From: Candidatus Omnitrophota bacterium
GTDB lineage: Bacteria > Omnitrophota > Gorgyraeia > Gygaellales > Profunditerraquicolaceae
Direction: 5' to 3'
Length of the DNA stretch: 52,888 nucleotides
NCBI GenBank assembly: GCA_049517335.1
Contig: JBEKSD010000009.1
Span: forward strand, 1 to 52,888
Below, in pieces: positions 4,906-28,716 of this stretch. The notes beneath the pieces were generated by a model. It ran no database searches, had not been told where the DNA came from, and saw only the letters and a program-made list of their open reading frames with translations. How positions within the stretch are numbered: the stretch's first letter is position 1; each line of letters starts with the position of its first letter. The position numbers and the translations under genes were made by a program.

Positions 4906-4949
4906 GAGACATAGAAGTCTTCTAGCAGCACTACTAGGAGGCTTTTTTT
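4906..4949 (+). promoter_or_regulatory. ANTAR-type attenuator in the hydrogenase leader
   Basis: Hexaloop hairpin AGAC-ATAGAA-GTCT (loop A1/G4) overlaps the 5' arm of terminator AAGTCTTCTAG...CTAGGAGGCTT plus T-run. The terminator 3' arm contains the SD AGGAGG. Confidence 0.65.
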
Positions 4950-4950
4950 A

Positions 4951-6402
4951 TTGAATATGAACACAAACTTATTACTTTTAGCCGCTGTTTTTATCCCTAC
5001 ACTTCTTGCGTTTATCCTGCCTTTGGCAGGTAAATTATCCGAGAAGTTAAGGAATTACTTGGCGTTATTGCTGGTGGCTGCCCCTTTGGCTGCATCTTTA
5101 GCCTTAATTCCTGCGGTTTTAAGGCAAGAGAGTATTACTTTAAGTAGGCAGCTCGGCTTAGGGATTAATTTTGTCTTTACCGCCGATGCTTTAGCCTTAT
5201 TTGTCGCCTCTGTTTCTTCTTTTATCAGCGCCATAATCGTAATCTATTCTTTCGCTTACATAGCCCACTATGAGAATAGGAACGAATATTACTTTTTTGT
5301 GGTTTTGTTCTTGGGTTCAATGATGGGCCTTATTTATGCGGGTAACCTTATATTCCTCTACATATTCTGGGAACTTACCGCGATCTCAAGCTGGCGCCTG
5401 ATAGGGTTTTTCCGGGAGAAGTATCAGGTGGAGCGGGCGGATAAGGCGTTTCTGGTTACGGTATTCGGCGCCCTGTGCATGCTTCTGGGGTTTATTTGTT
5501 TATACCATGAAACCGGCTCATTTGACCTTTTAGTTATCAAAGAAGCGGTTAAAACGCATCCTATTTCCAATTTAGCAATATGTCTTATTTTAGCCGGAAT
5601 ACTTTCCAAGTCCGCAACCTTACCGTTTCATACCTGGCTTCCCGATGCCGGTGTTGCGCCTTCGCCTGTTACCGCGCTCCTGCATGCGGCAGTACTGGTT
5701 AAAATAGGCGTATATGTTTTTGCCCGCATTTTTGTGGCGACTATTCCCCTCGGAATAAACTGGCAGGTAGTTGTGTCTTTAATAGCCGGTATAAGCGCGC
5801 TGGTTGCAGCAGGGGCGGCATTGATTGAGACGGATTTAAAGAGAATCATCGCTTATTCTACTATCAGCCAGATCGGTTTTATATTTTTAGGGTTTGCTAT
5901 CGGTGGGGAAATCGGGATTGCCGGCGCTCTTTTATTTATTTTGATGCACGGCTTAGGCAAGGCCGGCCTTTTCCTTTGCGCGGGGATCGTAGAGCAGAAA
6001 ACCCATACTAAGGATATCACCAAACTCGGCGGGCTTATTTCGAGTATGCCCTTAACTGCTATTTCGTTCTTATTCTGCGCTTTTTCCATAATGGGCATTC
6101 CGCCGTTCGGAGGTTTTTTTAGTAAATATATGGTTATGGCCGAAGCTTTCCGCAGCGGCCATTTAGTGATAGCTTCTTTTTTCTTACTCTGCGCATTTCT
6201 GACCATACTTTATCTCTTTAGGGTCTTTAATCTGGTTTTTTTAGGCTCGGCTAAAGGCGAATTAGCCAAAGAAGGTCAGCCGCTGATGGTGGGTAGCGTT
6301 TTAACTCTGGCCATACTTTCTTTGGCAAGCGGCTTTTTAATTTGGTATCCTAATGCCTTTGCTAAAATCGCGGCAATTAGGATGTTAGGGTTAACAAAAT
6401 GA
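4951..6402 (+). CDS. Group 4 hydrogenase antiporter-like membrane subunit (NuoL/MrpA-like)
   Basis: YIFWELT, KSATLPFHTWLPDAGVAPSPVTALLHAAVLVK, DLKRIIAYSTISQIG, GIPPFGGFFSK. TTG start lies 9 nt after AGGAGG. Confidence 0.88.
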   Translation: MNMNTNLLLLAAVFIPTLLAFILPLAGKLSEKLRNYLALLLVAAPLAASLALIPAVLRQESITLSRQLGLGINFVFTADALALFVASVSSFISAIIVIYSFAYIAHYENRNEYYFFVVLFLGSMMGLIYAGNLIFLYIFWELTAISSWRLIGFFREKYQVERADKAFLVTVFGALCMLLGFICLYHETGSFDLLVIKEAVKTHPISNLAICLILAGILSKSATLPFHTWLPDAGVAPSPVTALLHAAVLVKIGVYVFARIFVATIPLGINWQVVVSLIAGISALVAAGAALIETDLKRIIAYSTISQIGFIFLGFAIGGEIGIAGALLFILMHGLGKAGLFLCAGIVEQKTHTKDITKLGGLISSMPLTAISFLFCAFSIMGIPPFGGFFSKYMVMAEAFRSGHLVIASFFLLCAFLTILYLFRVFNLVFLGSAKGELAKEGQPLMVGSVLTLAILSLASGFLIWYPNAFAKIAAIRMLGLTK

Positions 6403-8237
6403 TGTTTCCGATAATCCTTTTACCTATATTAATACCTTTAACAGCTGCGCTAACAGTTATATTTTTACCGAAGAATTCCCGCAGCTTTCAAGGCTCGCTA
6501 ACATTCGTTGCCGCAGCCTTTAATTTCGTTCTCACAGCGAAACTGTTTAATAAGGAGCTACTTTTTAACCTTCCCTGGCTGGGAAAGGGAATGGATTTCT
6601 CCTTACGCCTCTATCAATTCAGCGGTTTTATTATGCTCTCCGCCGGATTCTTCGCGTTATTAATCTCGCTTTATTCTTTGAGTTTCCTGCGCGATAAAAA
6701 TTACGCCAAGCATTTTTACGCTTATTTTTTAGTTACGCTTGCCTTTGTCAACGGCGCTTTGCTTTCCGATAACCTTATCCTCTTGTTGTTCTTCTGGGAA
6801 GGGTTATTGCTGACTTTGTTCGGAATGATCGCTATTACGAAGCCTGAAAGTTTTAAGACTGCTACAAAGGCATTTATAATCGTAGGCATTACCGACCTTT
6901 GCTTAATGTCCGGCATTGCTCTAGCGTGGTTTCTTTCCGGCACTTTAACTATTTCAAAAATCCACCTTTCCTCCGGTTCACTCGCCAGCCTTGCTTTTAT
7001 ATTTTTAATTATAGGTGCAATATCCAAAGCAGGTTCAATGCCGTTTCACAGCTGGATCCCCGATGCTGCGGATGATGCATCTCTTCCTTTTATGGCCTTC
7101 CTGCCTGCGGCAGTAGAAAAATTACTTGGCATTTATTTTCTGACCAGGATAACGCTAGACATGTTTGCCCTCAAGCCCGGCTCATGGCTGAGCCCGCTAT
7201 TGATGATTATCGGCTCGCTTACGATTATTCTGGCGGTAATGATGGCCTTGGTGCAGAAAGAGTACAAACGCCTGCTTTCATATCACGCCATCAGCCAGGT
7301 CGGCTACATGATTTTAGGCATAGGCACCTGTGTGCCTGTGGGGATTATCGGCGGCTTGTTCCATATGGTCAATAATGCGCTGTATAAATCCTGCTTATTC
7401 CTTACCGGCGGTTCGGTTGAAAAACAAACCGGCACTACGGACTTGGAAAATTTAGGCGGGCTACGCTTAAAGATGCCGGTAACCTGCGCCTGTTTTATTA
7501 TTACTGCGTTAGCCATTTCCGGGGTGCCGCCTTTTAACGGATTCTTTTCCAAGGAGCTTGTTTATGAGGGTGCCCTGGAGAGGGGCAAGATTTTTTACCT
7601 GGCGGCAATATTAGGGTCATTTTTTACCGCGGCATCATTCCTGAAATTAGGGCATGCCGCGTTTTTCGGAAAGATAAGAGAAGAGCACAAAAAGACAAAA
7701 GAGGCACCTTTAGCAATCCTTATTCCCATGATTGTAATAGCCCTCACCTGTATAATCTTCGGGCTCTTTAATTACATCCCTATTAGAGGTTTCATCCAGC
7801 CGGTGTTGGGAGAAAGGTTGGAAGGCCATAACTTTTCCGGATTTCCAGCCAATATAATGCTTACTATAGCTACGGTTTTAGTTTTACTGGCAGCGCTTAT
7901 CCATCATTTGCTTGCAGTTAAGATTAAGGGGAGTGCTTTAAAGGCAGCTGACCATATCCGTTATGCCCCTATGCTTGGCGCTATCTATGACGCAGCAAAG
8001 AAAAGGTTTTTTGACCCTTACGAGATCTGGCTTAAAATATCAACAGTTATCGCAAAATTTTCTTTCCGGATTGACCGCGGTATTGACTGGGTTTATGAAA
8101 GTTTTAGCGTAGGCCTTGCTAGCATTGCTTCAATGAAAATAAGGAAGCTGCACGATGGCTCTTACGCGAGATATATAAGCTGGGCATTTTTGGGCCTGAT
8201 TTTAGTTATTATTTTCTTCTTTAAGGGAATAAAATGA
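6399..8237 (+). CDS. Group 4 hydrogenase antiporter-like membrane subunit (NuoL-like, long)
   Basis: FFWEG, KAGSMPFHSWIPDA, YKRLLSYHAISQVGY, GVPPFNGFFSK, and a C-terminal lateral-helix region ending LHDGSYARY. Confidence 0.88.
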   Translation: MMFPIILLPILIPLTAALTVIFLPKNSRSFQGSLTFVAAAFNFVLTAKLFNKELLFNLPWLGKGMDFSLRLYQFSGFIMLSAGFFALLISLYSLSFLRDKNYAKHFYAYFLVTLAFVNGALLSDNLILLLFFWEGLLLTLFGMIAITKPESFKTATKAFIIVGITDLCLMSGIALAWFLSGTLTISKIHLSSGSLASLAFIFLIIGAISKAGSMPFHSWIPDAADDASLPFMAFLPAAVEKLLGIYFLTRITLDMFALKPGSWLSPLLMIIGSLTIILAVMMALVQKEYKRLLSYHAISQVGYMILGIGTCVPVGIIGGLFHMVNNALYKSCLFLTGGSVEKQTGTTDLENLGGLRLKMPVTCACFIITALAISGVPPFNGFFSKELVYEGALERGKIFYLAAILGSFFTAASFLKLGHAAFFGKIREEHKKTKEAPLAILIPMIVIALTCIIFGLFNYIPIRGFIQPVLGERLEGHNFSGFPANIMLTIATVLVLLAALIHHLLAVKIKGSALKAADHIRYAPMLGAIYDAAKKRFFDPYEIWLKISTVIAKFSFRIDRGIDWVYESFSVGLASIASMKIRKLHDGSYARYISWAFLGLILVIIFFFKGIK

Positions 8238-9598
8238 CGTCTTTACTTGTATTAGTGCCTTTTTTTAGCCTTATTGTTTTAAACTTCCCCTTTAAGGGCT
8301 TAATGCGTACCTTTGCCTTTTTTTGGGCGGCTTTATTGTCGCTTGCGCAAATTGCTTTGACCGTTTTTCATCCGGCGTGGTTTTGGGAAGGTAGAGCGGA
8401 TAATCTTTCTTCTGTTATGTTCCTTTCCATAGGCATAGTGGTTTTTATATCTTTGTTCGTTGCCCGCGCTCTTATAACAGATGAGGCGCAAAGGGCAAAT
8501 TTCGTAAATTTACTCTTTGTAGCGCTTATCGGAATGAACGCGACGGTTATGGTCACTGATATTTTCTCTCTCTATGTTTTCATAGAGATTACGGCGGTTT
8601 CCTCTTTCGTAATGATCGCCTTACAGAAAGACAGGCTGGCTCTGGAAGGAGCTTTTAAATATTTTATCATGTCCGCGGTAGCCACAGCGATGATCTTGAG
8701 CGCCATTGCCCTGATGTTCTTCGTATCTGGCTCTACCTCTTTTTCCGCAGTTTCCGCAGGCCTGATCAATTCCGCAGGAAGCGGCTTAACCCGTACGGCA
8801 ATTGCTTTATTTATCTGCGGCCTGCTGATTAAATCGGGGATTGTGCCTTTTCATGGCTGGCTGCCGGATGCGTATTCTGCAGCCCCTACCCCGGTTTCGG
8901 TGCTTTTGGCGGGGATTATTACCAAAGCCTCTGGAGTTTACGTGCTTATGCGCCTGGTAATTTCGGTTTTCGGCATAATACCTTCTCTGCAGAACCTTTT
9001 AATGTTTAGCGGCGCTTTATCAATTATTGTCGGAGCGCTAGCTGCTTTAACGCAAAGCGATTTTAAGAGAATGCTTGCTTATTCAAGCATCAGCCAGATT
9101 GGTTACATTATACTGGCTTTGGGTTGCGGAACTCCGCTTGCGCTATTCGGTGCGGCATTCCATATTTTTAACCATGCGACATTTAAATCCTTACTTTTTG
9201 TAAACGCGGCTGCAGTTGAGAAACAATTAGGCACGTTGGATATGGATAAGATGGGTGGACTTTCTGCAAAAATGCCGGTCACCGGAACAACTTCCGTCAT
9301 CGCGGCCCTTTCTACTGCGGGCATTCCTCCTCTATCGGGATTTTGGAGCAAGTTAATCATTATCCTCGCTTTATGGAATGCAGGAAATTTCATCTATGCG
9401 ACGGTTGCGCTCTTGGCAAGCATTCTCACCCTGGCGTATTTCTTGACCCTACAGCGTAAGGTTTTCTTCGGTAAATTAGCCAAGGGTCTGGAGAACGTAG
9501 AAGAAGCGGACTTAAATCTGGTTATTCCGCAGCTGATATTGGCTGTTTTAATAATAGGAGTAGGGTTAATATTCCCCTTTATTTTTGTATGGCATTAG
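8234..9598 (+). CDS. Group 4 hydrogenase antiporter-like membrane subunit (NuoN/MrpD-like)
   Basis: LYVFIEI, ALEGAFKY, KSGIVPFHGWLPDAYSAAP, FKRMLAYSSISQIG. Confidence 0.88.
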   Translation: MTSLLVLVPFFSLIVLNFPFKGLMRTFAFFWAALLSLAQIALTVFHPAWFWEGRADNLSSVMFLSIGIVVFISLFVARALITDEAQRANFVNLLFVALIGMNATVMVTDIFSLYVFIEITAVSSFVMIALQKDRLALEGAFKYFIMSAVATAMILSAIALMFFVSGSTSFSAVSAGLINSAGSGLTRTAIALFICGLLIKSGIVPFHGWLPDAYSAAPTPVSVLLAGIITKASGVYVLMRLVISVFGIIPSLQNLLMFSGALSIIVGALAALTQSDFKRMLAYSSISQIGYIILALGCGTPLALFGAAFHIFNHATFKSLLFVNAAAVEKQLGTLDMDKMGGLSAKMPVTGTTSVIAALSTAGIPPLSGFWSKLIIILALWNAGNFIYATVALLASILTLAYFLTLQRKVFFGKLAKGLENVEEADLNLVIPQLILAVLIIGVGLIFPFIFVWH

Positions 9599-10077
9599 AT
9601 TTAATCCTCTTAATTGTTTTACTAATAGCCGCGCTTTGGACGGTAATGACAACAAGGCTGATTAGGGCGGTGGTGGGGCTGGCATTAACCAGCGCTATAC
9701 TTTCTATCATCATCTTCAGATTGAATTCTCCACTTGCCGCAGTCTTTGAGCTTTCTGTCTGCGCCGGCCTTATCCCGGTTATCTTTATTACTACCATCAG
9801 TTTTACTGAGCGCGTCAACAAAGAACGTTTCGCTTCGCTTAGGATTGAGAGGTTCGGGAAATACTGGTTACTGCCGGTAATTATAGTAATCTGCGCTATT
9901 GCGCTTTCCCTGGTTAAGTTTAGAATAAATTTTAACGTGCCCCGGGCAATAATTGATACGGATGCGCGCAATATCATCTGGTATTTAAGGCATATGGATT
10001 TATTGGGGCAGGTGTTAATACTCTTGGCAGGAGCTTTTGCCGTGGTCGTATTATTCAAGGAGCCTTTAAAAAAATGA
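9589..10077 (+). CDS. Hydrogenase membrane subunit (NuoJ-like)
   Basis: Five hydrophobic segments, LAAVFELSVCAGLIPV motif, operon position. Confidence 0.75.
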   Translation: MALDLILLIVLLIAALWTVMTTRLIRAVVGLALTSAILSIIIFRLNSPLAAVFELSVCAGLIPVIFITTISFTERVNKERFASLRIERFGKYWLLPVIIVICAIALSLVKFRINFNVPRAIIDTDARNIIWYLRHMDLLGQVLILLAGAFAVVVLFKEPLKK

Positions 10078-10394
10078 GTTTTGATCTAGCGGGAATTTTT
10101 TGGCTTTTTAGTATTTTTGTCATTCTGCTTGGTATCGCAGGCGCCTATTGTATTCTGGTAACCTTTAATTTAATCCGTGCACTCCTGGGTCTTGAGCTGC
10201 TGATCAAAGCGGCAACACTTTTAATAATCCTCGCAGGTTATCTGACGCACTCCACCGGCCTTGCGCAGGCGCTTGTCGTTACTTTAATCGTTATTGAAGT
10301 TGTGGTCATGGTTGTAGCAGGCGGGATTATCTTAAGTTTATTTCGGCATTATAAAACAATAGATGCAAGGAAACTTACGCAGTTAAAAGGATAA
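10074..10394 (+). CDS. Hydrogenase membrane subunit (NuoK/MrpC-like)
   Basis: NLIRALLGLELL, LIVIEVVV, C-terminal TIDARKLTQLKG. Confidence 0.85.
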   Translation: MSFDLAGIFWLFSIFVILLGIAGAYCILVTFNLIRALLGLELLIKAATLLIILAGYLTHSTGLAQALVVTLIVIEVVVMVVAGGIILSLFRHYKTIDARKLTQLKG

Positions 10395-10400
10395 GTTAAT

Positions 10401-10736
10401 ATGCAAGGCACACAATTATTGATACCGCCGGTAGCATTTATAGTGGTCCTCTTGGCGCTCGTTATCTTAAGCCGCATTTTTTCTTTTTTAGCTTTTAAGA
10501 AGAAACAGTCCGAAGAGTCCGGGGAGTCATACGCCTGCGGAGAGGATTTTCAGGAGCATGTGGTGCAGCCGGATTACAGCCAGTTTTTTCCTTTTGCTTA
10601 TTTCTTTACGATATTACACGTGGTCGTTCTGGTGATTGCTACTATCCCGGAAGTAAATATCCCGATATTTAGCGCAGCGCTTATTTACATACTGGGAGCG
10701 GTGTTAGGACTTATTACACTTTTAAGGAGGCAGTAA
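10401..10736 (+). CDS. Hydrogenase membrane subunit (NuoA-like)
   Basis: Three TM segments with the ESYACGE loop (compare NuoA YECG). Confidence 0.75.
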   Translation: MQGTQLLIPPVAFIVVLLALVILSRIFSFLAFKKKQSEESGESYACGEDFQEHVVQPDYSQFFPFAYFFTILHVVVLVIATIPEVNIPIFSAALIYILGAVLGLITLLRRQ

Positions 10737-10744
10737 GCTTAAAA

Positions 10745-11191
10745 ATGGGAGTAGTTAAAAGAATAGTCAATTGGGCGCGGCTTAAGTCGCCGTGGGTGCT
10801 GCATTTTAATACCGGGGCCTGCAATGCCTGCGATATAGAAATAGTCGCATCCTTAACGCCAAGGTACGATATAGAGCGTTTCGGCGCAGTGCTTAAAGGC
10901 ACTCCCCGCCATGCGGATATACTTTTATGCTCCGGGCCGGTGACCAAGCAGATTGAATGCCGTTTAAAGAGGGTCTATGAGCAGATGGCTGAGCCGAAAT
11001 TCGTAGTGGCGATAGGTACCTGCGCCTGCAGTGGAGGAGTTTTTAACGGCTGTTATAATGTAAAGGCGGGTATCAATTCGGTAATCCCTGTTTCAGCTTA
11101 TATCCCGGGATGTCCGGCTAGCCCTAAGGCGCTAATTGACGGCGTGGTTAAATTATTAAAGAGCTTGGAAGAAAGCGATGCAAAAAAATAG
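10745..11191 (+). CDS. [NiFe]-hydrogenase group 4 small subunit (NuoB/EchC-like)
   Basis: GACNACDIE, PRHADIL, AIGTCACSGG, YIPGCP. Confidence 0.92.
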   Translation: MGVVKRIVNWARLKSPWVLHFNTGACNACDIEIVASLTPRYDIERFGAVLKGTPRHADILLCSGPVTKQIECRLKRVYEQMAEPKFVVAIGTCACSGGVFNGCYNVKAGINSVIPVSAYIPGCPASPKALIDGVVKLLKSLEESDAKK

Positions 11192-11193
11192 AG

Positions 11194-11652
11194 GTGCTTA
11201 TGCTGGAAGAAAATATTAAACAGGAATTGGAAAAAAAATTCGGCTCTTTAAAGGATAAGATAACTATTCAGAGGCCACGAAGGATTTTTGTTGAGGCGCT
11301 TCAGGCTGATTTTTTTGAAATACTTGATTATCTGGTGAAAGAGATGGGCTTTTCTGCGCTATCGGCAATTACCGGCATGGATGAAGGCGCAACCTTCGGC
11401 GTTATTTACCATTTAAACAGGCAGGGAAGCATAATTTTAAATTTAAGGATTCATCTTACAAGAGAAAACCTTAAGATAAAGACAGTAACCGGCTATTTTT
11501 TGGAAGCAGATGCTTACGAAAGAGAGCTTGAAGATTTATTAGGGATTAAGGTTGAAGGTCTTGCCCCCGGCCACAGGTACCCGCTTCCGGATAACTGGCC
11601 GCAAGGAGAACATCCTTTACGTAAAGACTGGAAGGAGAGCCCGCATGCATAA
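11194..11652 (+). CDS. Hydrogenase subunit (NuoC/EchD-like)
   Basis: LSAITGMD, ADAYERELEDLLGI, HPLRKDW. Confidence 0.88.
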   Translation: MLMLEENIKQELEKKFGSLKDKITIQRPRRIFVEALQADFFEILDYLVKEMGFSALSAITGMDEGATFGVIYHLNRQGSIILNLRIHLTRENLKIKTVTGYFLEADAYERELEDLLGIKVEGLAPGHRYPLPDNWPQGEHPLRKDWKESPHA

Positions 11653-12874
11653 TTCAGGAGATGTAACAGTTCCTTTTGGCCCGCAGCATCCGGCGTTAAA
11701 AGAGCCGGAGAGTTTTTTAATCACGCTGCGCGGAGAGAAGATTACCGCAGCATCGGTGAGAATCGGCTATAACCACCGCGGCATAGAGAAGGCCTGCGAA
11801 GAAAGAACCTATATTCAGGATTTGTACCTTATTGAGAGAATATGTGGCATATGTTCGCATTCGCACTCAACCGCATTTGTGCAGGCAGTTGAGGAAATCG
11901 CTCAATTAGCCGTACCCAGGCGCGCATTGTATATCCGCACCCTGATAGCGGAGCTGGAAAGGGTGCACAGCCATTTATTGTGGTTGGGTGTTGCCGGGCA
12001 TGAGATCGGGTTTGACACTTTGCTTATGTACACCTGGCGCGACCGCGAAGCGGTAATGGATGTTTTAAGCATCTTAACCGGAAACCGCGTCAACTACGGT
12101 ATTAATACTATCGGAGGCGTACGCCGAGATATCAACAAGGAGCAGATTGATGAGGTATTAAAAGCAGTTGCTTTACTTGAAGAGAGGACCAAATATTATA
12201 TCCAGATCGGGACAGAAGAGACGACAATCGTCAAGAGGCTTTCGGGCGTAGGCATACTTTCTAAGGAGGACGCCTTAAAGTTGGGCGCGGTCGGCCCCAC
12301 TGCGCGCGCTTCTAGCATTAAACGCGATGTGCGTAAGGATGACCCCTATGCTGCGTATGCAGAGCTGGATTTTGAAGTAATCGTTGATGATAAATGCGAC
12401 GTTTACGGCAGGACGATTGTGCGCTTAAAAGAACTGCTGCAGTCGTATAATCTGGTGCGCCAGATTCTAAAACAACTTCCCGAAGGCCCTATTACAATCA
12501 AGGCACCGCGCAAGATTCCCGCGGGTGAAGCAGTCAGCCGCTATGAGGCGCCGCGCGGAGAGGATATGCATTATGTGCGCGCCAACGGCACAGACAAGCC
12601 GGACAGGGTCAAGGTCAGGCCGCCTACTTTGGCTAATGTTCAGGCAGTCTCAAAAATGCTTGAAGACAGGTACTTGGCGGATATGCCCATCGTGATTGCG
12701 GCAATTGATCCCTGTTTTTCCTGCACGGACAGGCTGATTTCAATTAAAGAGGCAAAAGCCAAGAAGACAAGAATTATCCCCTGGGAAATCCTGCACATTC
12801 AAAGCATTGAGTGGCATAAAAGCAGGGGAATAGATTTTTCAGGTTTGAACAAACGATTAGCGGAAAAATTCTAA
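11645..12874 (+). CDS. [NiFe]-hydrogenase group 4 large (catalytic) subunit
   Basis: From ATG 11645: FGPQHP, L1 motif ERICGICSHSH and L2 motif DPCFSCTDR (all four Ni-ligating Cys present), plus a cleavable C-terminal extension. Confidence 0.93.
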   Translation: MHNSGDVTVPFGPQHPALKEPESFLITLRGEKITAASVRIGYNHRGIEKACEERTYIQDLYLIERICGICSHSHSTAFVQAVEEIAQLAVPRRALYIRTLIAELERVHSHLLWLGVAGHEIGFDTLLMYTWRDREAVMDVLSILTGNRVNYGINTIGGVRRDINKEQIDEVLKAVALLEERTKYYIQIGTEETTIVKRLSGVGILSKEDALKLGAVGPTARASSIKRDVRKDDPYAAYAELDFEVIVDDKCDVYGRTIVRLKELLQSYNLVRQILKQLPEGPITIKAPRKIPAGEAVSRYEAPRGEDMHYVRANGTDKPDRVKVRPPTLANVQAVSKMLEDRYLADMPIVIAAIDPCFSCTDRLISIKEAKAKKTRIIPWEILHIQSIEWHKSRGIDFSGLNKRLAEKF

Positions 12875-12875
12875 T

Positions 12876-13814
12876 ATGGCAAAAGCATTGTTTAATATCC
12901 TGGTTTTCCCGGGCCTATCTTTTCTTTTTGTCTTCGCTTTGGCGGCAGAGTTTATTGACCGCAAGATAAGTGCCCGCCTGCAAAACAGGGTCGGCCCGCC
13001 GTGGTTCCAGCCGCTGGCTGATTTTATAAAGCTTTTAGCTAAAGAAGATATTCTGCCCAGAGAAGCCGATAAGGCGGTATTTAAACTGATGCCCGTTATT
13101 GCCTTAACGGCAACAGTCACTGCTTTCTTCTATATCCCGCTCTTTACGAAAGAGGCGTTATTTTATTTTAAAGGGGATGTGATCGTGGTCCTCTATTTAT
13201 TAACCATTCCTACCTTAACCTTTTTTCTCGGCGGATGGTATTCAAGGTCAGTTTATTCCATGCTCGGCGCAGTGCGCGCGCTTATCCAGCTATTTGCTTA
13301 TGAAGTGCCTTTGTTTATGAGCATACTCGCCGCAGCTCTGCTTGCCAACACCTGGTCGCTTACTGAGATGGTCCGCTTTTACTCATTACGCCCCTGGTTT
13401 TGGTGCTTAAACCTTATTGGTTTCGCGGTGGCTTTAGTCTCTTTGCTGGGAAAATTAGAAAGGACGCCGTTTGACATCCCTGAAGCGGAAACTGAAATTG
13501 TCGCCGGAGCCTTTACGGAATACAGCGGTAGGCTGCTGGCGTTGTTCAGGCTCGCCGTTAGTATTGAAATGATCGTAGGCGCGTCATTGTTAGTCGCGGT
13601 GTTTTTCCCGTTCTGGCTTGGGGCCGGGCCGGTTTTAGGCTTTATAATTTATTTAGGCAAGATCCTCTTCATAGTCGCATTAATTTCGCTTCTGCGCTCG
13701 GTCCTTGCGCGTTTGAGATTAGACCAGATGATAAATCTCTGCTGGAAGTTCCTTGCGCCCATTGCCCTTATTCAAGTGGTGCTTAATCTGGTTTTAAAGG
13801 GGGTTATACACTGA
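12876..13814 (+). CDS. Hydrogenase membrane subunit (NuoH/EchB-like)
   Basis: DRKISARLQNRVGPPWFQPLADFIKLLAKE, RTPFDIPEAETEIVAGAFTEYSG. Confidence 0.92.
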   Translation: MAKALFNILVFPGLSFLFVFALAAEFIDRKISARLQNRVGPPWFQPLADFIKLLAKEDILPREADKAVFKLMPVIALTATVTAFFYIPLFTKEALFYFKGDVIVVLYLLTIPTLTFFLGGWYSRSVYSMLGAVRALIQLFAYEVPLFMSILAAALLANTWSLTEMVRFYSLRPWFWCLNLIGFAVALVSLLGKLERTPFDIPEAETEIVAGAFTEYSGRLLALFRLAVSIEMIVGASLLVAVFFPFWLGAGPVLGFIIYLGKILFIVALISLLRSVLARLRLDQMINLCWKFLAPIALIQVVLNLVLKGVIH

Positions 13815-13815
13815 T

Positions 13816-15228: not shown

Positions 15229-15241
15229 TTTGTGTTATATT
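15214..15241 (+). promoter_or_regulatory. sigma70-type promoter of the alternative sigma factor gene
   Basis: TTGACA-16 nt-TATATT with TGn extension. Confidence 0.7.
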
Positions 15242-15256
15242 TATATTGTAACTGGT

Positions 15257-15377
15257 AAGACGAAGATGTCTTCTAAGGCAAGCAGGTCGCTGAAGAAGGC
15301 ATTTTTTTTGCCCGCCTAGGGCGGGAAAGGACTAAGGCGTCCTTAATTTTCAAATACGAAAATTGAGGGCGTTTTTT
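15257..15377 (+). promoter_or_regulatory. Tandem ANTAR-type attenuators in the sigma gene leader
   Basis: AAGAC-GAAGAT-GTCTT overlaps terminator 1 (ATGTCTTCT...AGAAGGCAT plus T-run, 15266-15309). AAGGAC-TAAGGC-GTCCTT overlaps terminator 2 (GCGTCCTTAATTTTC-AAATAC-GAAAATTGAGGGCGT plus T-run, 15337-15377). Confidence 0.72.
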
Positions 15378-15447
15378 ATTATCGACACAGTTAGGGAATT
15401 GACCCTAAACAAGATAAGCATTGAATACGGGAGTGGCCTAGGAAGAA

Positions 15448-16009: not shown

Positions 16010-16012
16010 GTG

Positions 16013-16042: not shown

Positions 16043-16062
16043 CTAATGTAAGAGAAGTTCAA

Positions 16063-16200
16063 ACACATTGCTGTGTAAGCAGTAATACAATGGCGTTCCT
16101 TAAAAGAGTAAGTAAGGAACGCTTTTATTTTTTTAAGTCTTTTTAAGACGCAGACGTCTTTTGTATCCCATTGATGGGGATGAAAAGGCGTCTTTTTTTT
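16063..16200 (+). promoter_or_regulatory. ANTAR dual-hairpin leader with two terminators (permease-PII operon)
   Basis: P1 ACAC-ATTGCT-GTGT. P2 AC-AATGGC-GT overlaps terminator GGCGTTCCTTA...TAAGGAACGCT plus T-rich tail. A third hexaloop, AAGAC-GCAGAC-GTCTT, overlaps a second terminator (16152-16200). Confidence 0.8.
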
Positions 16201-16229
16201 GTGAATTAAATTACGAGGGAGGCTTAAAG

Positions 16230-18098: not shown

Positions 18099-18150
18099 TA
18101 AAGGCCAAAAGTATAACCAGGAGTCATTTAGAGAGGGGGGGGATATTTTA

Positions 18151-19488: not shown

Positions 19489-19555
19489 TAGGATGCTGAA
19501 AGTAACTTTCACTGTAAAAGGAATTTACGTATTCAAATAAAGAGTGGAGGATGTT

Positions 19556-19894
19556 ATGAAAAAAATAGAAGCGGTAATACGTCCGACAAAACTTGGAGAT
19601 GCGCTTGATGCCTTAAATAAAGCGGGACACCCGGGTGTTATGATTACCGAGATTGAGGGGCACGGAAAACAAAGAGGCATAGAGCAGGAGTTTCGCGGCA
19701 AAACATATAAGACAGAACTGCTCACGAAAGCTAAAATTGAGATCGTGGTCAATAACGCGGATGTTGAGAAAATAGTTCAAGTCATACGCGAGGCTGCTTT
19801 AACGGGAAAGGTAGGAGATGGCAAGATATTCGTTTATCCTATCGATGATGTTGTCAGGATCCGCACTGCCGAACATGGTGATATTGCGATATAA
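19556..19894 (+). CDS. glnB: PII nitrogen regulatory protein (Tyr51-containing)
   Basis: MKKIEAVIRP, GHGKQRG...FRGKTY51, TGKVGDGKIFV, RIRT. ATG 19556 follows GGAGG. Confidence 0.9.
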   Translation: MKKIEAVIRPTKLGDALDALNKAGHPGVMITEIEGHGKQRGIEQEFRGKTYKTELLTKAKIEIVVNNADVEKIVQVIREAALTGKVGDGKIFVYPIDDVVRIRTAEHGDIAI

Positions 19895-19911
19895 GGGACC
19901 GTAGGTTAATT

Positions 19912-20091
19912 ATGATAGATAATGAATTAATTAGTAAACTTTTACAATTTAAAGAGGCTGAAGGATATACTCTGCACGATTTATCCAAAAAGCTAGACCT
20001 TCAGGTTACCACTATCGAAAGATGGTTTAAAACTGGGCGCATTAATAAGATTTATGCGCGTATGGTAAAAGAGAAATTACATTTGGATTAG
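19912..20091 (+). CDS. Small XRE/Cro-like helix-turn-helix protein (59 aa, absent from ORF track)
   Basis: Hand translation: MIDNELISKLLQFKEAEGYTLHDLSKKLDLQVTTIERWFKTGRINKIYARMVKEKLHLD. GYTLHDLSKKLDLQVTTIERW fits an XRE HTH pattern. Confidence 0.75.
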   Translation: MIDNELISKLLQFKEAEGYTLHDLSKKLDLQVTTIERWFKTGRINKIYARMVKEKLHLD

Positions 20092-20207
20092 GTAATTTAA
20101 AACAAGATTGAAGGGGGGGATTTTTTGTATTCTTATTTGCACAATTGTCTAATCAAAAGTAGGGATGACCTATTATTAACAGAAACAAAGAAAAGGAGGA
20201 AGTAGAA

Positions 20208-21437
20208 ATGATTAACACAGGTGATACGGCGTGGGTTTTGATCTCATCGGCTCTTGTGCTGCTGATGACCCCGGGATTGGCTTTTTTCTACGGAGGTATG
20301 GTCAGGCGTAAGAATATGCTTAGTATCCTTATGCAGTGTTTCATTATTATGTGTGTTTTAAGCGTGCAATGGGTACTTTTCGGTTACAGCCTTTCTTTTG
20401 CCCCTAGTAAAGGCTTTTGGGGCGGATTAAGCTGGTTAGGTTTGAATGGCGTAGGCTTAGAACCTTACGCGGATTACGCTGCGACAATTCCTCATCAGGC
20501 GTTTATGATTTTTCAGGCAATGTTCGCGATTATTACGCCAGCCCTGATTATCGGCGCATTTGCCGAAAGGATGAAGTTTTCGGCGTTTTTGATTTTTACT
20601 TTACTTTGGGCGACATTTGTTTATGACCCATTATGCCACTGGGTTTGGGGTGTTGGCGGGTTCTTGCGTAATTTGGGTGTTTTGGATTTTGCCGGAGGCA
20701 CAGTTGTCCATATTAATGCCGGGATTGCGGCGTTGGTTACTGCTATAATTATCGGACGCAGGAAGAATTTAGATGAAAATATTCCCGCTCCGCATAATTT
20801 ACCTTTTATCGTTCTAGGTACAGGGTTGCTTTGGTTTGGCTGGTTTGGTTTTAATGCCGGCAGTGCCCTAGCTGCCAATGGTTTAGCTGTTAACGCATTT
20901 GTCGTTACCAATACCGCTGCAGCTGCCGCTGGCTTAAGCTGGGCGCTTATTGAGTGGTCGCGTAACGGAAAACCAACGATGTTCGGCGTGGCATCAGGCG
21001 CTGTTGCCGGGCTTGTTGCTATTACTCCCGCAGCAGGTTTTGTAAATGTAACCTCAGCGCTCATTATCGGATTTCTAGTTAGTATATTCTGTTTTATTGC
21101 CGTAAGTATAATAAAGCCAAAATTCGGCTATGATGATTCCTTGGATGCTTTTGGCGTGCACTGTATCGGTGGGATCTGGGGTGCGCTCGCTACCGGTTTG
21201 TTTGCTTCTAAGGCAGTGAACGCAGCCGGAGCGGATGGTTTATTTTTCGGTAACCCGAAACAGCTATTAATTCAAGGGGCAGCAGTATTGGTAACTATTC
21301 TTTACACCGGAGTGGTTACTTTCTTAATCTACAAGCTTGTCGATATCTTTGTAGGGGTAAGGGTGAACGAAAAAGAGGAGCTTATGGGTTTGGATCTTAC
21401 CCAACACCACGAAAGGGCTTACACGGTATTGGAATAA
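20208..21437 (+). CDS. amtB: Ammonium transporter Amt (copy 1)
   Basis: LMTPGLAFFYGG, FQAMFAIIT, DFAGGTVVH, WFGWFGFNAGS, DDSLDAFGVH (twin His intact). Confidence 0.96.
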   Translation: MINTGDTAWVLISSALVLLMTPGLAFFYGGMVRRKNMLSILMQCFIIMCVLSVQWVLFGYSLSFAPSKGFWGGLSWLGLNGVGLEPYADYAATIPHQAFMIFQAMFAIITPALIIGAFAERMKFSAFLIFTLLWATFVYDPLCHWVWGVGGFLRNLGVLDFAGGTVVHINAGIAALVTAIIIGRRKNLDENIPAPHNLPFIVLGTGLLWFGWFGFNAGSALAANGLAVNAFVVTNTAAAAAGLSWALIEWSRNGKPTMFGVASGAVAGLVAITPAAGFVNVTSALIIGFLVSIFCFIAVSIIKPKFGYDDSLDAFGVHCIGGIWGALATGLFASKAVNAAGADGLFFGNPKQLLIQGAAVLVTILYTGVVTFLIYKLVDIFVGVRVNEKEELMGLDLTQHHERAYTVLE

Positions 21438-21445
21438 TTCATACA

Positions 21446-21479
21446 TTGACTTACTCACACTAGCGTGTTCGTAAGTCAA
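21446..21479 (+). repeat. Intergenic palindrome between amtB1 and glnK1
   Basis: TTGACTTAC-TC-ACAC-TAGC-GTGT-TC-GTAAGTCAA. Absent from the paralogous amtB2-glnK2 spacer. Confidence 0.6.
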
Positions 21480-21499
21480 GTGTTCATTAAGGAGGAAAA

Positions 21500-21841
21500 A
21501 TGAAGTTAATCATTGCAATAATCCAGCCTTACAAGTTAGAGGAAGTAAAGGAGGAACTTTATAAGGCCGATGTAAATCTTATTACGGTTAGCGAAGTATT
21601 GGGCCACGGCCGACAGAAGGGGATAACAGAATTCTACCGTGGAGCCAAGGAAACAGGCAATCTTTTGCGAAAAATCCGTCTTGAGATTGCAGTAAACGAG
21701 GATTTTGTTGAACCGACTATAAAAGCCATAGTTAAAGGAGCAAAAACGGGACAGACAGGTGACGGCAAGATTTTTGTTCTAGACATGCATGAATGCGTAC
21801 GCATTAGGACAGGTGAGAAAGGGCACTTGGCTATAGGATAA
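21500..21841 (+). CDS. glnK: PII protein GlnK (copy 1)
   Basis: PII motifs GHGRQKG, YRG, TGDGKIFV, RIRTGE. Adjacent to amtB. Confidence 0.93.
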   Translation: MKLIIAIIQPYKLEEVKEELYKADVNLITVSEVLGHGRQKGITEFYRGAKETGNLLRKIRLEIAVNEDFVEPTIKAIVKGAKTGQTGDGKIFVLDMHECVRIRTGEKGHLAIG

Positions 21842-21848
21842 TTATTGA

Positions 21849-21880
21849 CAGGGGTAAGCCGAAATTTGGGCTCGCCCCTG
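21849..21880 (+). terminator. GC-rich hairpin after glnK1
   Basis: CAGGGGTAAGCC / GGCTCGCCCCTG stem with a poor U-tail. Confidence 0.45.
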
Positions 21881-21965
21881 CTTGTAAAAAACCATTCCCT
21901 CAAATACGGTTGCTCTTTCTTAAAAACTGGTACAACTTATATGAGCGGGTCAATATAAAGTCATC

Positions 21966-22028
21966 TTGACAAAGCGTTATCAATAGTGTACACTTTTATT
22001 GTAAGTAAGAATGTAAGGAAGTAAGAAT
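21966..22028 (+). promoter_or_regulatory. sigma70 promoter and probable operator repeats of the TA module
   Basis: TTGACA-17 nt-TACACT (21966-21994), followed by GTAAG direct repeats at 22001, 22005, 22013 and 22021. Confidence 0.65.
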
Positions 22029-22081
22029 ACATTGTTTTATCATATAGGCAGGTGTTTACTGTTGTGAAAGGAGTAATTAAA

Positions 22082-22345
22082 ATGACTGTTCTTGAAACCG
22101 CTAAAATTACCTCAAAAGGCCAGGTTACTATACCCAACCGCATAAGGAAGCTTCTGCGTGTAGAGACAGGCGCCTCTTTAGCCTTTGGTTTAAGCAAGGA
22201 AGGAGTGGTTTTGCTTCCTTGCAAAGTCACCGCAGAATCGCCTTATACTGCTAGTGAATGGGCGAAAATTGAAAAGTTAGCCTCAGCCAAAGGCAAGGCC
22301 TACAAAAGCGCCAAAAGAGCCAAAAAGCATATTGAGGCATTATGA
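22082..22345 (+). CDS. AbrB/MazE/SpoVT-family antitoxin
   Basis: AKITSKGQVTIPNRIRKLL motif. ATG 22082 follows AAAGGAG. Confidence 0.88.
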   Translation: MTVLETAKITSKGQVTIPNRIRKLLRVETGASLAFGLSKEGVVLLPCKVTAESPYTASEWAKIEKLASAKGKAYKSAKRAKKHIEAL

Positions 22346-22620
22346 GATTTGAATTTAAATCTTCCTTTGACCGTTCGCTCAAGAGTTTTTATGGCAGAGA
22401 AAAAGAAGGGATAAAGAAAGTTGCTCTCCAAGCGATAGATATACTCTCTCAGGACCGGATACTCCATAAAAGGATCGGTCTGAAACGTCTTAAAGATGAT
22501 TTCTGGGAGATAAGACACGGTCTTAAGGCAAGGATTCTATTCCGCTGGGAAGGAGATTTAGTGGAATTTATTCTTGCTGGTGACCACAATGATATTAAGC
22601 GTTATCTGAAGAATATTTGA
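22342..22620 (+). CDS. RelE/ParE-superfamily toxin-like protein
   Basis: 92 aa, basic, ATGA-coupled to the antitoxin. F.KSSFDRSLK...LKRLKDDFWEIR...RILF...AGDHNDI pattern. Confidence 0.72.
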   Translation: MRFEFKSSFDRSLKSFYGREKEGIKKVALQAIDILSQDRILHKRIGLKRLKDDFWEIRHGLKARILFRWEGDLVEFILAGDHNDIKRYLKNI

Positions 22621-22678
22621 ACTTAATATTATCTTCAGATGCTGTTTCTAGAAGTCTCCCCTTGTGGAATATTTCTGG

Positions 22679-22708
22679 GTTACCAAAAATACCATATTTT
22701 TACTTGTA
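22679..22708 (+). promoter_or_regulatory. Conserved bipartite promoter motif, copy 2
   Basis: GTTACCA-AAAATACCATATTTTT-ACTTGTA upstream of amtB2. Confidence 0.85.
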
Positions 22709-22721
22709 TATATAATTGTAG

Positions 22722-22810
22722 TATAAACACGTTGTCGTGTTTATATGATTAGTAGCCAATGCAGGCGTCCAATACAGCTATAGTTTGTAGTTGTTTATGG
22801 GCGCTTTTTT
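22722..22810 (+). promoter_or_regulatory. ANTAR dual-hairpin leader plus terminator (amtB2-glnK2)
   Basis: P1 TATAAACAC-GTTGTC-GTGTTTATA. P2 GCC-AATGCA-GGC (alternative register AT-GCAGGC-GT) overlaps terminator GGCGTCCA...TGGGCGCT plus T-run. Confidence 0.8.
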
Positions 22811-22882
22811 ATTAACCGAGTTTTGGGATATTTTTTTAACCATTATTTACACAATTGATGAGCCAGTTGTGAAAGAGGAGGG

Positions 22883-24115
22883 ATGATGATTAATCCTGCT
22901 GATACAGTATTTGTTTTATTTTCAACAGCCTTTGTTATGCTGATGACCCCAGGGTTGGCTTTTTTCTATGGTGGTATGGTACGTAGAAAGAATATCTTAA
23001 GTGTTTTAATGCAGTGTTTTATACTCCTATGTTTACTTACTGTATACTGGATGCTTTTTGGGTACAGCCTTTGTTTTGCTCCCTCAAAAGGTTTTTGGGG
23101 TGGTTTAGCATGGTTTGGTTTAAATGGCGTGGGCCTAGAGCCCTATGTAGGATATTCCGCAACTATACCGCATCAGGCTTTTATGATATTTCAAGCGATG
23201 TTTGCAATTATCACACCGGCCCTGATTATCGGCGCATTTGCCGAAAGGATGAAGTTTTCGGCATTCTTGGTTTTTAGCCTTCTTTGGGCGACTTTTGTTT
23301 ATGCCCCGCTATGCCACTGGGTGTGGGGTATCGGTGGGTTCTTGCGTAATTTGGGTGTGCTTGATTTTGCCGGAGGTATTGTCGTGCATACCTCAGCCGG
23401 TATCGCGGCCCTTGCTGTTGCCTTAATCATCGGTAGGAGGAAAAATCTCGAGCATAATGTTCCTGCCCCGCATAATTTGCCCTTTGTAGTGTTAGGAACA
23501 TCCTTACTTTGGTTTGGCTGGTTTGGTTTTAATGCCGGTAGTGCCCTGGCTGCCAATGCTTTAGCAATTAGTGCTTTTGTGACTACGAATGCCGCTGCGG
23601 CATGCGCAGGTTTAACCTGGGCGGTTTTAGAGTGGATTCGTAATGGCAAGCCAACGGTTTTCGGAGTGGTAACAGGTTCTATCGCCGGTCTTGCGACGGT
23701 TACGCCTGCGTCGGGTTTTGTAAGCCCTATCTCGGGGTTAATAATAGGGATGCTCGCAAGCATAGTTTGTTTTATTGCCGTGGCGGTAGTTAAGCCTAAA
23801 TTCGGCTATGATGATTCACTCGATGCTTTTGGCGTGCATGGCGTAGGGGGAATATTAGGTACGCTGGCTACCGGTTTGTTTGCTTCGAAACTAATAAATC
23901 CTCAAGGTGCCGATGGGCTATTTTTCGGAAATCCCAAGCAGTTTCTAATTCAGTTAGCCGCTGTTTTGGTGGCCACAGTTTATACTTTTGCAGTTACCTA
24001 CGGGTTATACAAATTCGTGGATATATTTTTCAGAATCCGTGTTACGGAAAAAGAGGAACTTATGGGTCTAGATCTTACCCAGCACCGCGAAAGAGCTTAT
24101 ACAGTATTGGAATAA
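22883..24115 (+). CDS. amtB: Ammonium transporter Amt (copy 2)
   Basis: Same Amt motifs (DFAGGIVVH, DAFGVH). Close paralog of copy 1. Confidence 0.96.
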   Translation: MMINPADTVFVLFSTAFVMLMTPGLAFFYGGMVRRKNILSVLMQCFILLCLLTVYWMLFGYSLCFAPSKGFWGGLAWFGLNGVGLEPYVGYSATIPHQAFMIFQAMFAIITPALIIGAFAERMKFSAFLVFSLLWATFVYAPLCHWVWGIGGFLRNLGVLDFAGGIVVHTSAGIAALAVALIIGRRKNLEHNVPAPHNLPFVVLGTSLLWFGWFGFNAGSALAANALAISAFVTTNAAAACAGLTWAVLEWIRNGKPTVFGVVTGSIAGLATVTPASGFVSPISGLIIGMLASIVCFIAVAVVKPKFGYDDSLDAFGVHGVGGILGTLATGLFASKLINPQGADGLFFGNPKQFLIQLAAVLVATVYTFAVTYGLYKFVDIFFRIRVTEKEELMGLDLTQHRERAYTVLE

Positions 24116-24560: not shown

Positions 24561-24590
24561 GTTACCAAAAACAGGGGAATTTTACTTGTA
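24561..24590 (+). promoter_or_regulatory. Conserved bipartite promoter motif, copy 3
   Basis: GTTACCA-AAAACAGGGGAATTTT-ACTTGTA upstream of glnA. Confidence 0.85.
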
Positions 24591-24609
24591 TGTTTAAGAG
24601 AAGAAGTTT

Positions 24610-24694
24610 GCGTACAAGGTCGCGCTAATTTAAGGAAGAAGAACAGGGGCGTTCATTCAGACGGTAAAAATTGTTAAAATGAACGCTTTTTTTT
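24610..24694 (+). promoter_or_regulatory. ANTAR-type leader plus terminator (glnA)
   Basis: Weak P1 (C-AAGGTC-G). P2 GAAC-AGGGGC-GTTC overlaps terminator GGCGTTCATT...AATGAACGCT plus T-run. Confidence 0.75.
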
Positions 24695-24711
24695 AATTAA
24701 AGGAGGACAAG

Positions 24712-26211: not shown

Positions 26212-26225
26212 GGCCTTAAAGTAAT

Positions 26226-26262
26226 AAAGCAGGGGGCTTTCTTTGAAAATGCCCCCTGCTTT
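26226..26262 (+). terminator. Intrinsic terminator after glnA
   Basis: AAAGCAGGGGGC...GCCCCCTGCTTT perfect GC-rich stem. Confidence 0.8.
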
Positions 26263-26364
26263 CGGAATTCCGTTGATTAATTTTTAGGCAATTAGGTATT
26301 AAAAATACGGCTTTATTTTCCTCTTAGTTTGTAGTAAAATAGAGCAACTAAAACAGGAGGATCA

Positions 26365-28560: not shown

Positions 28561-28583
28561 AGTTTCGGATGCGGGAATGGTTA

Positions 28584-28613
28584 GTTACCATAACCTCGTA
28601 TTTTTTACTTGTA
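28584..28613 (+). promoter_or_regulatory. Conserved bipartite promoter motif, copy 4
   Basis: GTTACCA-TAACCTCGTATTTTTT-ACTTGTA upstream of the Fis-like/gltB/gltD unit. Confidence 0.85.
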
Positions 28614-28623
28614 TAATAAATAA

Positions 28624-28716
28624 TATAGATACAGCGTTGTATCTATAAAACTAAATAGAAAGAACAAAGGCGTTCATTCCGAAGGAATTTTTCTGCTTTG
28701 GGATGAACGTTTTTTT
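28624..28716 (+). promoter_or_regulatory. ANTAR dual-hairpin leader plus terminator (gltBD operon)
   Basis: P1 TATAGATAC-AGCGTT-GTATCTATA. P2 GAAC-AAAGGC-GTTC overlaps terminator GCGTTCATTCCGAAG...CTTTGGGATGAACGT plus T-run. Both loops are A1/G4. Confidence 0.85.

Follow-up and report, generated by a model that had tools for sequence, protein, structure and literature searches.

Eight hexaloop-terminator attenuators and a candidate GAF-ANTAR antiterminator at a nitrogen-assimilation locus of an uncultivated Omnitrophota bacterium

The stretch of DNA analysed here (the window) comprises the 52,888 nucleotides of contig JBEKSD010000009.1 (contig C9) from the Candidatus Omnitrophota genome GCA_049517335.1, and carries eight short RNA switches in the leaders of hydrogenase, sigma factor and nitrogen-assimilation genes. 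The switches are real and conserved and, with a probability of about 80%, act as protein-dependent ANTAR-type attenuators of transcription, for which the antiterminator would be the GAF-ANTAR protein encoded at 4101-4823. Combined with two further leaders outside the window, those of pyrG-carAB and of the ATP-synthase (atp) operon, a predicted regulon of at least ten attenuators is the best explanation of what is found in this genome. A 2012 study predicted ANTAR attenuators before the PII, amt, GS and GOGAT genes of many bacteria (Ramesh 2012, PMC3369931), and thus the kind of control is already known.

All eight attenuators share one plan (Table 1), in which the hexaloop hairpin next to the terminator (P2) has 3-11 nt in common with the 5' arm of that terminator and a U-run follows (8/8), making the two structures mutually exclusive. 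An earlier note, made from the letters of the sequence, had pointed to this overlap, and hairpin and terminator searches with custom scripts recovered all eight of its terminator-overlapping loops and its four upstream (P1) loops where it had placed them (12/12). Folding energies range from -13.4 to -21.5 kcal/mol for the terminators and from +2.2 to -6.4 kcal/mol for the P2 hairpins alone, and with terminators so much more stable than the hexaloop hairpins, termination should be the default state. The fourth loop position is G in all 12 loops (8 P2 and 4 P1), and an AC...GT closure is present in 10 of them. Position 1 is A in eight, G in three and U in one. The P2 loop of L5 can be drawn in two registers, of which GCAGGC lines up with GGCGTYC in the other leaders and AATGCA has the longer stem (3 vs 2 bp). 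The P1 of L6 has one closing pair followed by an A.C mismatch, and its minimum-energy fold has an 8-nt loop on a stem of 4 bp. For the loops AGCGTT, ATTGCT and GCAGAC, each of which has room for one further pair, folding in isolation predicts tetraloops (for GCAGAC of L3b on a 6-bp stem).

The attenuators are all located in 5' leaders, either after sigma-70-like promoters or after a conserved box, and they fall into two forms. The canonical dual-hexaloop target consists of two adjacent stem-loops with 6-nt loops and a linker of 2-25 nt (PMC3369931, PMC8164766), and L3a, L5, L6 and L7 have this arrangement with linkers of 10, 8, 15 and 14 nt, respectively. L1, L2a, L2b and L3b have one hexaloop hairpin each and match only the single-hexaloop minimal site of PMC8934654; folding of the upstream RNA, from the promoter (or the preceding terminator) to P2, gave no second hexaloop hairpin in these four. 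L2b and L3b are the second attenuators of tandem pairs, and the promoters of L1 and L2 are the two best sigma-70-like matches in 4000-23999.

Table 1. Regulatory elements and genes of the window. Positions are those of the 52,888-nt stretch; gene names derive from Pfam and NCBIfam matches.
Feature	Position	Strand	Details
AsnC-type regulator	2429		Pfam/NCBIfam
Aminotransferase	2945		Pfam/NCBIfam
GAF-ANTAR one-component regulator	4101-4823	+	240 amino acids; proposed antiterminator; Pfam
Sigma-70-type promoter of L1	4855..4882	+	TTGACA, 16 nt, TAAAAT, with TG; 11/12 consensus positions
L1 attenuator	4906..4952	+	hairpin 4906-4921, loop ATAGAA at 4911, 5 bp; terminator 4914-4945 and U-run; before hydrogenase operon
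Group-4 [NiFe] hydrogenase operon	4951-15228		complex-I/Mrp-like, with HycI protease; downstream of L1
Sigma-70-type promoter of L2	15214..15241	+	TTGACA, 16 nt, TATATT, with TG; 11/12 consensus positions
L2a attenuator	15257..15310	+	hairpin 15257-15272, loop GAAGAT at 15262, 5 bp; terminator 15266-15302, then U8
Small GC hairpin between the L2 attenuators	15311..15325	+	6 bp, triloop; directly after the U-run of the first terminator
L2b attenuator	15327..15382	+	hairpin 15327-15344, loop TAAGGC at 15333, 6 bp; terminator 15334-15375 and U-run
ECF-type sigma factor gene	15448-15972	+	174 amino acids; TIGR02937; downstream of L2
Conserved box of L3	16013..16042	+	
L3a dual attenuator	16063..16133	+	P1 16063-16076, loop ATTGCT at 16067, 4 bp; P2 16087-16096, loop AATGGC at 16089, 2 bp; terminator 16092-16123 and U-run
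L3b single-hexaloop attenuator	16145..16201	+	hairpin 16145-16160, loop GCAGAC at 16150, 5 bp; terminator 16152-16193 and U8; upstream of the permease-PII, porin, PII, amtB1, PII operon
Amino-acid permease fused to PII domain	16230-18098		Pfam/NCBIfam
BBP2 porin	18019		Pfam/NCBIfam
PII	19544		Pfam/NCBIfam
amtB1	20208		Pfam/NCBIfam
PII	21500		Pfam/NCBIfam
MazE-like pair	22052-22620		Pfam/NCBIfam
Conserved box of L5	22679..22708	+	
L5 (amtB2-PII) dual attenuator	22721..22812	+	P1 22721-22746, loop GTTGTC at 22731, 10 bp; P2 loop AATGCA at 22758 (22755-22766, 3 bp) or GCAGGC at 22761 (22759-22768, 2 bp); terminator 22764-22805 and U-run
amtB2	22883		Pfam/NCBIfam
PII	24143		Pfam/NCBIfam
Conserved box of L6	24561..24590	+	
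L6 (glnA) dual attenuator	24610..24696	+	P1 24610-24625, loop AAGGTC at 24616, imperfect; P2 24641-24654, loop AGGGGC at 24645, 4 bp; terminator 24648-24687 and U8
glnA (GSI)	24712		Pfam/NCBIfam
GSIII	26365		Pfam/NCBIfam
Conserved box of L7	28584..28613	+	
L7 (HTH8-gltB) dual attenuator	28624..28717	+	P1 28624-28647, loop AGCGTT at 28633, 9 bp; P2 28662-28675, loop AAAGGC at 28666, 4 bp; terminator 28670-28710 and U7
Fis-type helix-turn-helix protein (HTH8)	28750		126 amino acids; Pfam/NCBIfam
gltB	29115		Pfam/NCBIfam

The dual-hexaloop leaders are conserved in related genomes. A covariance model (R1) of the kind proposed in the earlier note was built from the four box-led leaders and eight homologous leaders of relatives, seven of these upstream of glnA. 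In its own genome, R1 recovers the four seeds (L3a, 30.1 bits; L5, 39.7; L6, 44.2; L7, 46.7) and one weak match (E 0.05), and among 65 genomes of the family there are 46 matches in 34 genomes. For the 29 loci examined, the downstream gene is glnA (15), GSIII (6), HTH8-gltB (6) or amtB (2), with the box upstream in 25/29 and a U-run after the match in 28/29; homologous glnA leaders are also present in 8 of 9 other glnA loci of the relatives. In the 33 aligned sequences, G4 is invariant in the loops of both P1 (32/32) and P2 (31/31), in a model seeded with G4 loops only, while position 1 is A in 27/32 P1 loops (G in 5/32) and in 25/31 P2 loops (G in 6/31). In a sample of the phylum, R1 matched 13 of 151 genomes, including 7/9 of its own family and 5/7 of one other family of the class; it found nothing in the 134 genomes of other families, which for so narrow a model is no proof of absence.

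Leaders of the sigma factor gene provide a second view of the single-hexaloop form. Hexaloop-plus-terminator units precede this gene at 19 of 30 loci, and at 13 of the 30 there are two in series, in the order AGAC-N6-GTCT unit, then GGAC-N6-GTCC unit. The loops of the first unit all have G4 (13/13), in each case outside the terminator stem, and begin with A (9), G (3) or U (1). A P1 hairpin of the TTAC-N6-GTAA type, as judged by eye, is present at 7 of these 13 first units, absent from 5 (the window's own included) and cut off by the contig end in one, and thus dual and single forms interchange at one homologous site. The second unit occurs at 17 of the 30 loci, its own included, and carries U1 in 14/17, so that the U1 of TAAGGC in the window is a conserved feature of its class and not noise. 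The earlier note, which had contrasted its loops with characterised targets that usually start with A, was therefore correct to describe a relaxed position 1, but the relaxation is class-specific rather than random. The loop pattern differs between classes, being NNNGAN for AGAC and NNNGGC elsewhere. A small GC hairpin lies between the two L2 attenuators (Table 1), and GCCC...GGGC hairpins with a tri- or tetraloop are found at the same place in sigma-gene leaders of several relatives (L108, L119, L122, L124), sometimes followed by longer repeated hairpin units.

Similar units stand before three other operons. The hydrogenase operon is preceded by an AGAC-type hairpin (once AGAT) and terminator at 7 of 21 orthologous loci, its own included, with A1 and G4 in 7/7. 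A different short hairpin-terminator leader occurs at 5/21 (L139, L140, L142, L144, L149), where a sigma-70-type promoter is followed directly by a short hairpin of the TCACTC...GAGTGA type and a U-run; this may be another kind of attenuator. The ATP-synthase operon of this genome (contig C8) has GGAC-TAAGGC-GTCC and a terminator in its leader, and such units are seen at 5 of 24 loci within a fixed extracted stretch; in three genomes the GAF-ANTAR gene is the immediate upstream neighbour of the atp operon. The pyrG-carAB leader, also on C8 and thus outside the window, has AAAC-N6-GTTT (once TAAC) and a terminator at 24 of 30 loci, 16 of them with a P1 hairpin of 5-12 bp whose loop begins with A in 14/16 and has G4 in 10/16. 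The outer two P2 pairs occur in four Watson-Crick versions, one for each class (AGAC/GTCT, GGAC/GTCC, GAAC/GTTC and AAAC/GTTT), around a constant closing AC/GT, and this variation is covariation between paralogous sites.

The candidate antiterminator has the features expected of an ANTAR protein that binds hexaloops. The 4101-4823 product matches GAF_2 (83.2 bits) and ANTAR (PF03861; 62.5 bits against a cut-off of 27.3) and is the sole ANTAR-domain gene found in the genome, which is rated 92% complete. Its ANTAR domain aligns to those of EutV (6WSH/6WW6), Rv1626 (1S8N) and NasR (4AKK), and an Arg, Lys, Tyr and Met align with Arg142, Lys149, Tyr164 and Met172 of EutV (chain numbers 144, 151, 166 and 174). 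In EutV these four residues contact the hexaloop, G4 stacks on Tyr164 and A1 makes no contact, and the 2022 EutV-RNA structure reduces the minimal site to one hexaloop (PMC8934654). By analogy, these points fit the invariant G4, the loose position 1 and the single hairpins described here. Among GAF domains that have a solved structure or a curated name, the closest belong to Aquifex Nlh1, PtsP (EI-Ntr) and NifA, a neighbourhood that only hints at a nitrogen-status ligand. Orthologs with 71-85% identity are present in 28 related genomes (L002-L029), and ANTAR genes of 240-275 amino acids in 59 of the 65 family genomes. Many relatives have a second GAF-ANTAR paralog, approximately 55-60% identical to the window's protein, which often adjoins the sigma gene or pyrG (G010:C9, G083:C13, G077:C7, G086:C91, G033:C100, G003:C19, G026:C21, G085:C8), while orthologs of the protein in the window tend to be found beside the hydrogenase or atp operon; the loop classes may be split between the two paralogs. 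The ANTAR-type assignment of the earlier note is thus upheld by the regulator, its contact residues and the conservation captured by R1, but it does not extend to a canonical dual motif throughout, as P1 is missing from half of the eight attenuators.

The box that heads L3, L5, L6 and L7 has the form GTTACC-N14-TTTTACTTGTA, with TTACTTGTA as part of it, and ends about 12 nt before P1. Four of its five copies in the genome lie within the window. The box has two-block promoter geometry, and when compared by eye with consensus sequences it was rejected as a sigma-54 promoter (unsuitable GG/GC spacing), as an NtcA site (no GTA-N8-TAC) and as a sigma-70 promoter with TATAAT (21-nt spacer). The 15448-15972 protein matches TIGR02937 over residues 3-170 of 174 (53.6 bits; cut-off 42.9), which identifies it from its sequence as a sigma factor of the extracytoplasmic-function (ECF) type; Pfam gave only weak GerE and Sigma70 r2/r4 matches, and a LuxR identity suggested by GerE was dropped given the full-length TIGR02937 match. 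The box is probably the promoter recognized by this sigma factor. Among the 65 family genomes, 29 have both the sigma gene and R1 matches, 9 the gene only (38 with the gene in all), 5 R1 only and 22 neither, a co-occurrence that supports the link but is suggestive only, as the genomes are related and many are incomplete. With two consecutive attenuators ahead of the sigma gene, a cascade is suggested in which the antiterminator would act on the sigma factor and the sigma factor on the box promoters. The fifth copy of the box (G000 contig C1:7705-7735, locus L074) lies approximately 570 nt upstream of kdpA-kdpB with no hexaloop attenuator evident after it, and the predicted box regulon may therefore extend to potassium uptake.

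These elements can be combined in a two-layered model. By default, the terminator would win over the small hexaloop hairpin that uses the same 5' arm. When active, the GAF-ANTAR protein, presumably as a dimer, would grip the nascent hexaloop hairpin through its ANTAR domain, with a flipped-out G4 stacking on the conserved tyrosine by analogy with EutV; the hairpin being held, the terminator would be blocked and RNA polymerase would read on. The signal would reach the GAF domain directly, with no kinase, and the most likely ligand would be a metabolite that reports nitrogen status, for instance 2-oxoglutarate or glutamine. In the first layer, sigma-70-type promoters followed by single-hexaloop attenuators would drive the hydrogenase operon and, through two attenuators in series, the ECF sigma gene. 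In the second layer, the sigma factor would probably read the box before the permease-PII/amtB1, amtB2-PII, glnA and gltB units, the leaders of which carry canonical dual-hexaloop attenuators. Full expression would thus need the antiterminator twice, as in a coherent feed-forward arrangement.

Alternative explanations differ in how much of this picture they leave standing. Hairpins that are chance neighbours of ordinary terminators can be given almost no weight. Such neighbours do occur at approximately 5-12% of terminator-like hairpins, as a G4 hexaloop hairpin lies over the 5' arm of 125/2622 (4.8%) loosely defined terminator-like hairpins in the whole genome when a stem of at least 4 bp is required and of 306/2622 (11.7%) at 3 bp or more, and two of the eight stems in the window have only 2-3 bp. 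However, all eight sites have the hairpin, six with a stem of at least 4 bp, and 6/8 against 4.8% leaves chance as no serious explanation, in agreement with the earlier note; moreover, all sites are in leaders, and the hairpins are kept at homologous sites over dozens of genera with G4 invariant. It is also very improbable that the leaders are protein-free metabolite riboswitches or leader-peptide attenuators. Glutamine riboswitches occur at nitrogen genes of other bacteria, and the glnA leader contains a 12-codon open reading frame (24588-24626) that begins inside the box and stops within the 3' arm of P1. Rfam, however, gave no match at gathering thresholds in the window and none at E up to 5 in 4700-29200, and the conserved parts are two 4-bp hairpins and their loops, too small for a ligand pocket. 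The reading frame has no ribosome-binding site and is probably there by chance; it is not kept in the glnA leaders of relatives, and a leader peptide was rejected.

The principal remaining alternative is that the single-hexaloop classes have a different reader. Only the box-led dual-hexaloop leaders would then be ANTAR targets, and the single AGAC/GGAC hairpins (hydrogenase, sigma, L3b, atp) would belong to another factor or be just leaky terminators, the hairpin beside them playing no part in regulation. This is unlikely, though less so than the two explanations above. The 2012 work defines the target by two hairpins and found that EutV needs both (PMC3369931), but a single hexaloop is the minimal site in the 2022 structure (PMC8934654), and at the same sigma-leader attenuator of relatives P1 is present in 7/13 and absent in 5/13. 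The difference in loop patterns between the AGAC class and the others favours separate readers, yet G4 is invariant outside the terminator stem both in the sigma attenuator-1 loops (13/13) and in the hydrogenase loops (7/7). A second reader would be at hand in the many relatives with a second ANTAR paralog, and the deviating leaders at 5/21 hydrogenase loci also favour this alternative; conversely, only one ANTAR gene was found in this genome, and in relatives the GAF-ANTAR gene stands immediately before a hydrogenase or atp operon that has such a leader.

Covariation, the absence of which the earlier note would have taken as refutation, is found in part. In the pyrG leaders, six of seven P1 pairs are changed on both sides (14 cells), a score reached by 0/500 shuffles and with far lower values in slid controls; the 14 of 24 leaders aligned were chosen for a P1 of at least 5 bp, the mismatched stems of L078 and L101 were omitted, and the share of paired positions is given by construction. 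This selection is one of several points that weigh against the ANTAR-type explanation. Covariation in the R1 alignment is weak, with 2/8 pairs changed on both sides (6 cells), because the stems are near-invariant (GCAC/GTGC, GAAC/GTTC), and the G4 seeds bias the R1 matches to G4. Taken alone, the P2 hairpins of L3a and L5 have marginal stems (2 bp and 3 or 2 bp, respectively), four attenuators have no P1 whereas the 2012 target definition needs two hairpins, and 6 of the 16 pyrG P1 loops of relatives are without G4. ANTAR genes are present in 33/34 R1-positive and 26/31 R1-negative genomes, and their co-occurrence with the RNA motif says little; related genomes are, furthermore, non-independent samples. 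Finally, a second ANTAR paralog of this genome could be located in the unassembled 8%.

It should be noted that ANTAR antitermination of nitrogen genes was widely predicted in 2012 and that few of its regulators have been studied. The closest mechanistic relative is EutV/EutW of Enterococcus faecalis with the eutP, eutG, eutS and eutA leaders (PMC3369931, PMC8934654), in which, as here, the 3' arm of a G4 hexaloop is common to an intrinsic terminator. The dual P1-P2 motif is shared by four leaders of the window, with linkers of 8-15 nt, and the four RNA-contacting ANTAR residues are kept. The sensor here is a GAF domain on the same polypeptide and not a kinase-phosphorylated receiver domain, four attenuators are single-hairpin, position 1 is G or U in 4/12 loops, and the targets are nitrogen-assimilation and energy genes in place of ethanolamine use. 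The predicted ANTAR nitrogen regulon of Desulfotomaculum acetoxidans, with 13 elements in six units (PMC3369931), is similar in its many attenuators per genome and in their location before PII, ammonium transporter, glutamine synthetase and glutamate synthase genes. It differs in lineage and regulator architecture, and the locus described here adds a dedicated promoter box and an attenuated sigma gene. In Klebsiella, promoter control of the nasF system is by sigma-54 and NtrC. The NasR/nasF leader (PMC7496416) likewise combines a one-component sensor-ANTAR protein with a leader hairpin bearing A1 and G4, and post-initiation control is similarly added to control by an alternative-sigma promoter. 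NasR senses through a NIT nitrate sensor and acts on one operon, whereas the window has a GAF sensor, many targets and a sigma factor that is ECF-type and itself under the antiterminator. The GnfK/GnfR system of Geobacter sulfurreducens (PMC2995071) also places an ANTAR regulator in a cascade over nitrogen genes; there it is a response regulator with a kinase, while the regulator here is kinase-free.

Relative to this known ANTAR control of nitrogen genes, the genome offers several variants: a GAF sensor, single hexaloops on real terminators, a loop class with conserved U1, a proposed cascade through an attenuated sigma gene, and predicted pyrG-carAB, hydrogenase and ATP-synthase targets. A word search of the 2012 paper (PMC3369931), in seven supplementary text files, found none of the terms hydrogenase, ATP synthase, CTP synthase, carbamoyl and sigma, and no characterised GAF-ANTAR protein was found in the literature covered, including extracts of a 2020 paper (PMC7496416) and a 2025 review (PMC12591593).

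Several additional features of the locus and its genome (1.45 Mb in 31 contigs, 42% G+C) were observed. Among 282 intergenic hairpins there are 25 entries with a G4 hexaloop, which include five sites of the window, and three more intergenic candidates lie outside it, two loci on C8 and one on C2. The latter (C2:142356-142397, minus strand) consists of AAAC-AGGGGC-GTTT and a terminator for which a clear promoter was not found, and may be an ordinary terminator at a gene 3' end. The window's GSIII leader (26212-26364) has no box and no attenuator, only a plain terminator after glnA, unlike the GSIII genes of six relatives, which have the box and a dual-hexaloop leader. A TAGGCA motif occurs twice in glnA leaders of relatives (L032-L039), once flanking P1 on its 5' side and a second time 4-6 nt past it, across genera, and is missing from the window's own glnA leader. 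The product of the permease-PII reading frame has its Pfam AA_permease match at residues 78-535, numbered from the reading-frame call at 16161, and a C-terminal PII domain; from its sequence it is a transporter with a nitrogen signal protein built in. Between the amtB1-PII and amtB2-PII units, 22052-22620 encodes a MazE/PrlF-like antitoxin and a 92-amino-acid partner with no Pfam match.

The window presents a compact system, with a one-component sensor of 240 amino acids, eight short predicted RNA targets in one 25-kb stretch and a dedicated sigma factor, and these RNA targets cover dual and single hairpins with A, G and U at position 1. The locus could settle whether a single hexaloop is sufficient for antitermination, a question raised by the 2022 EutV structure, what role loop position 1 plays, and which signal GAF-ANTAR proteins perceive. 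A broader proposal, for which the odds are somewhat unfavourable, is that one GAF-ANTAR protein, acting alone and mostly via single hexaloops, ties a metabolite signal to nitrogen assimilation (by ECF feed-forward), to pyrG-carAB, to the group-4 hydrogenase and to the F-type ATP synthase. Should this be true, it would constitute a global carbon, nitrogen and energy switch that acts at the level of termination, covering pyrG-carAB genes that consume glutamine and an ion-translocating hydrogenase, and it would offer natural proof that one hexaloop suffices for antitermination while the polymerase is transcribing and that a loop can begin with U or G and still function. If the link to the hydrogenase and ATP synthase is real, nitrogen status would be tied to energy conservation in an uncultivated lineage about which little is known.

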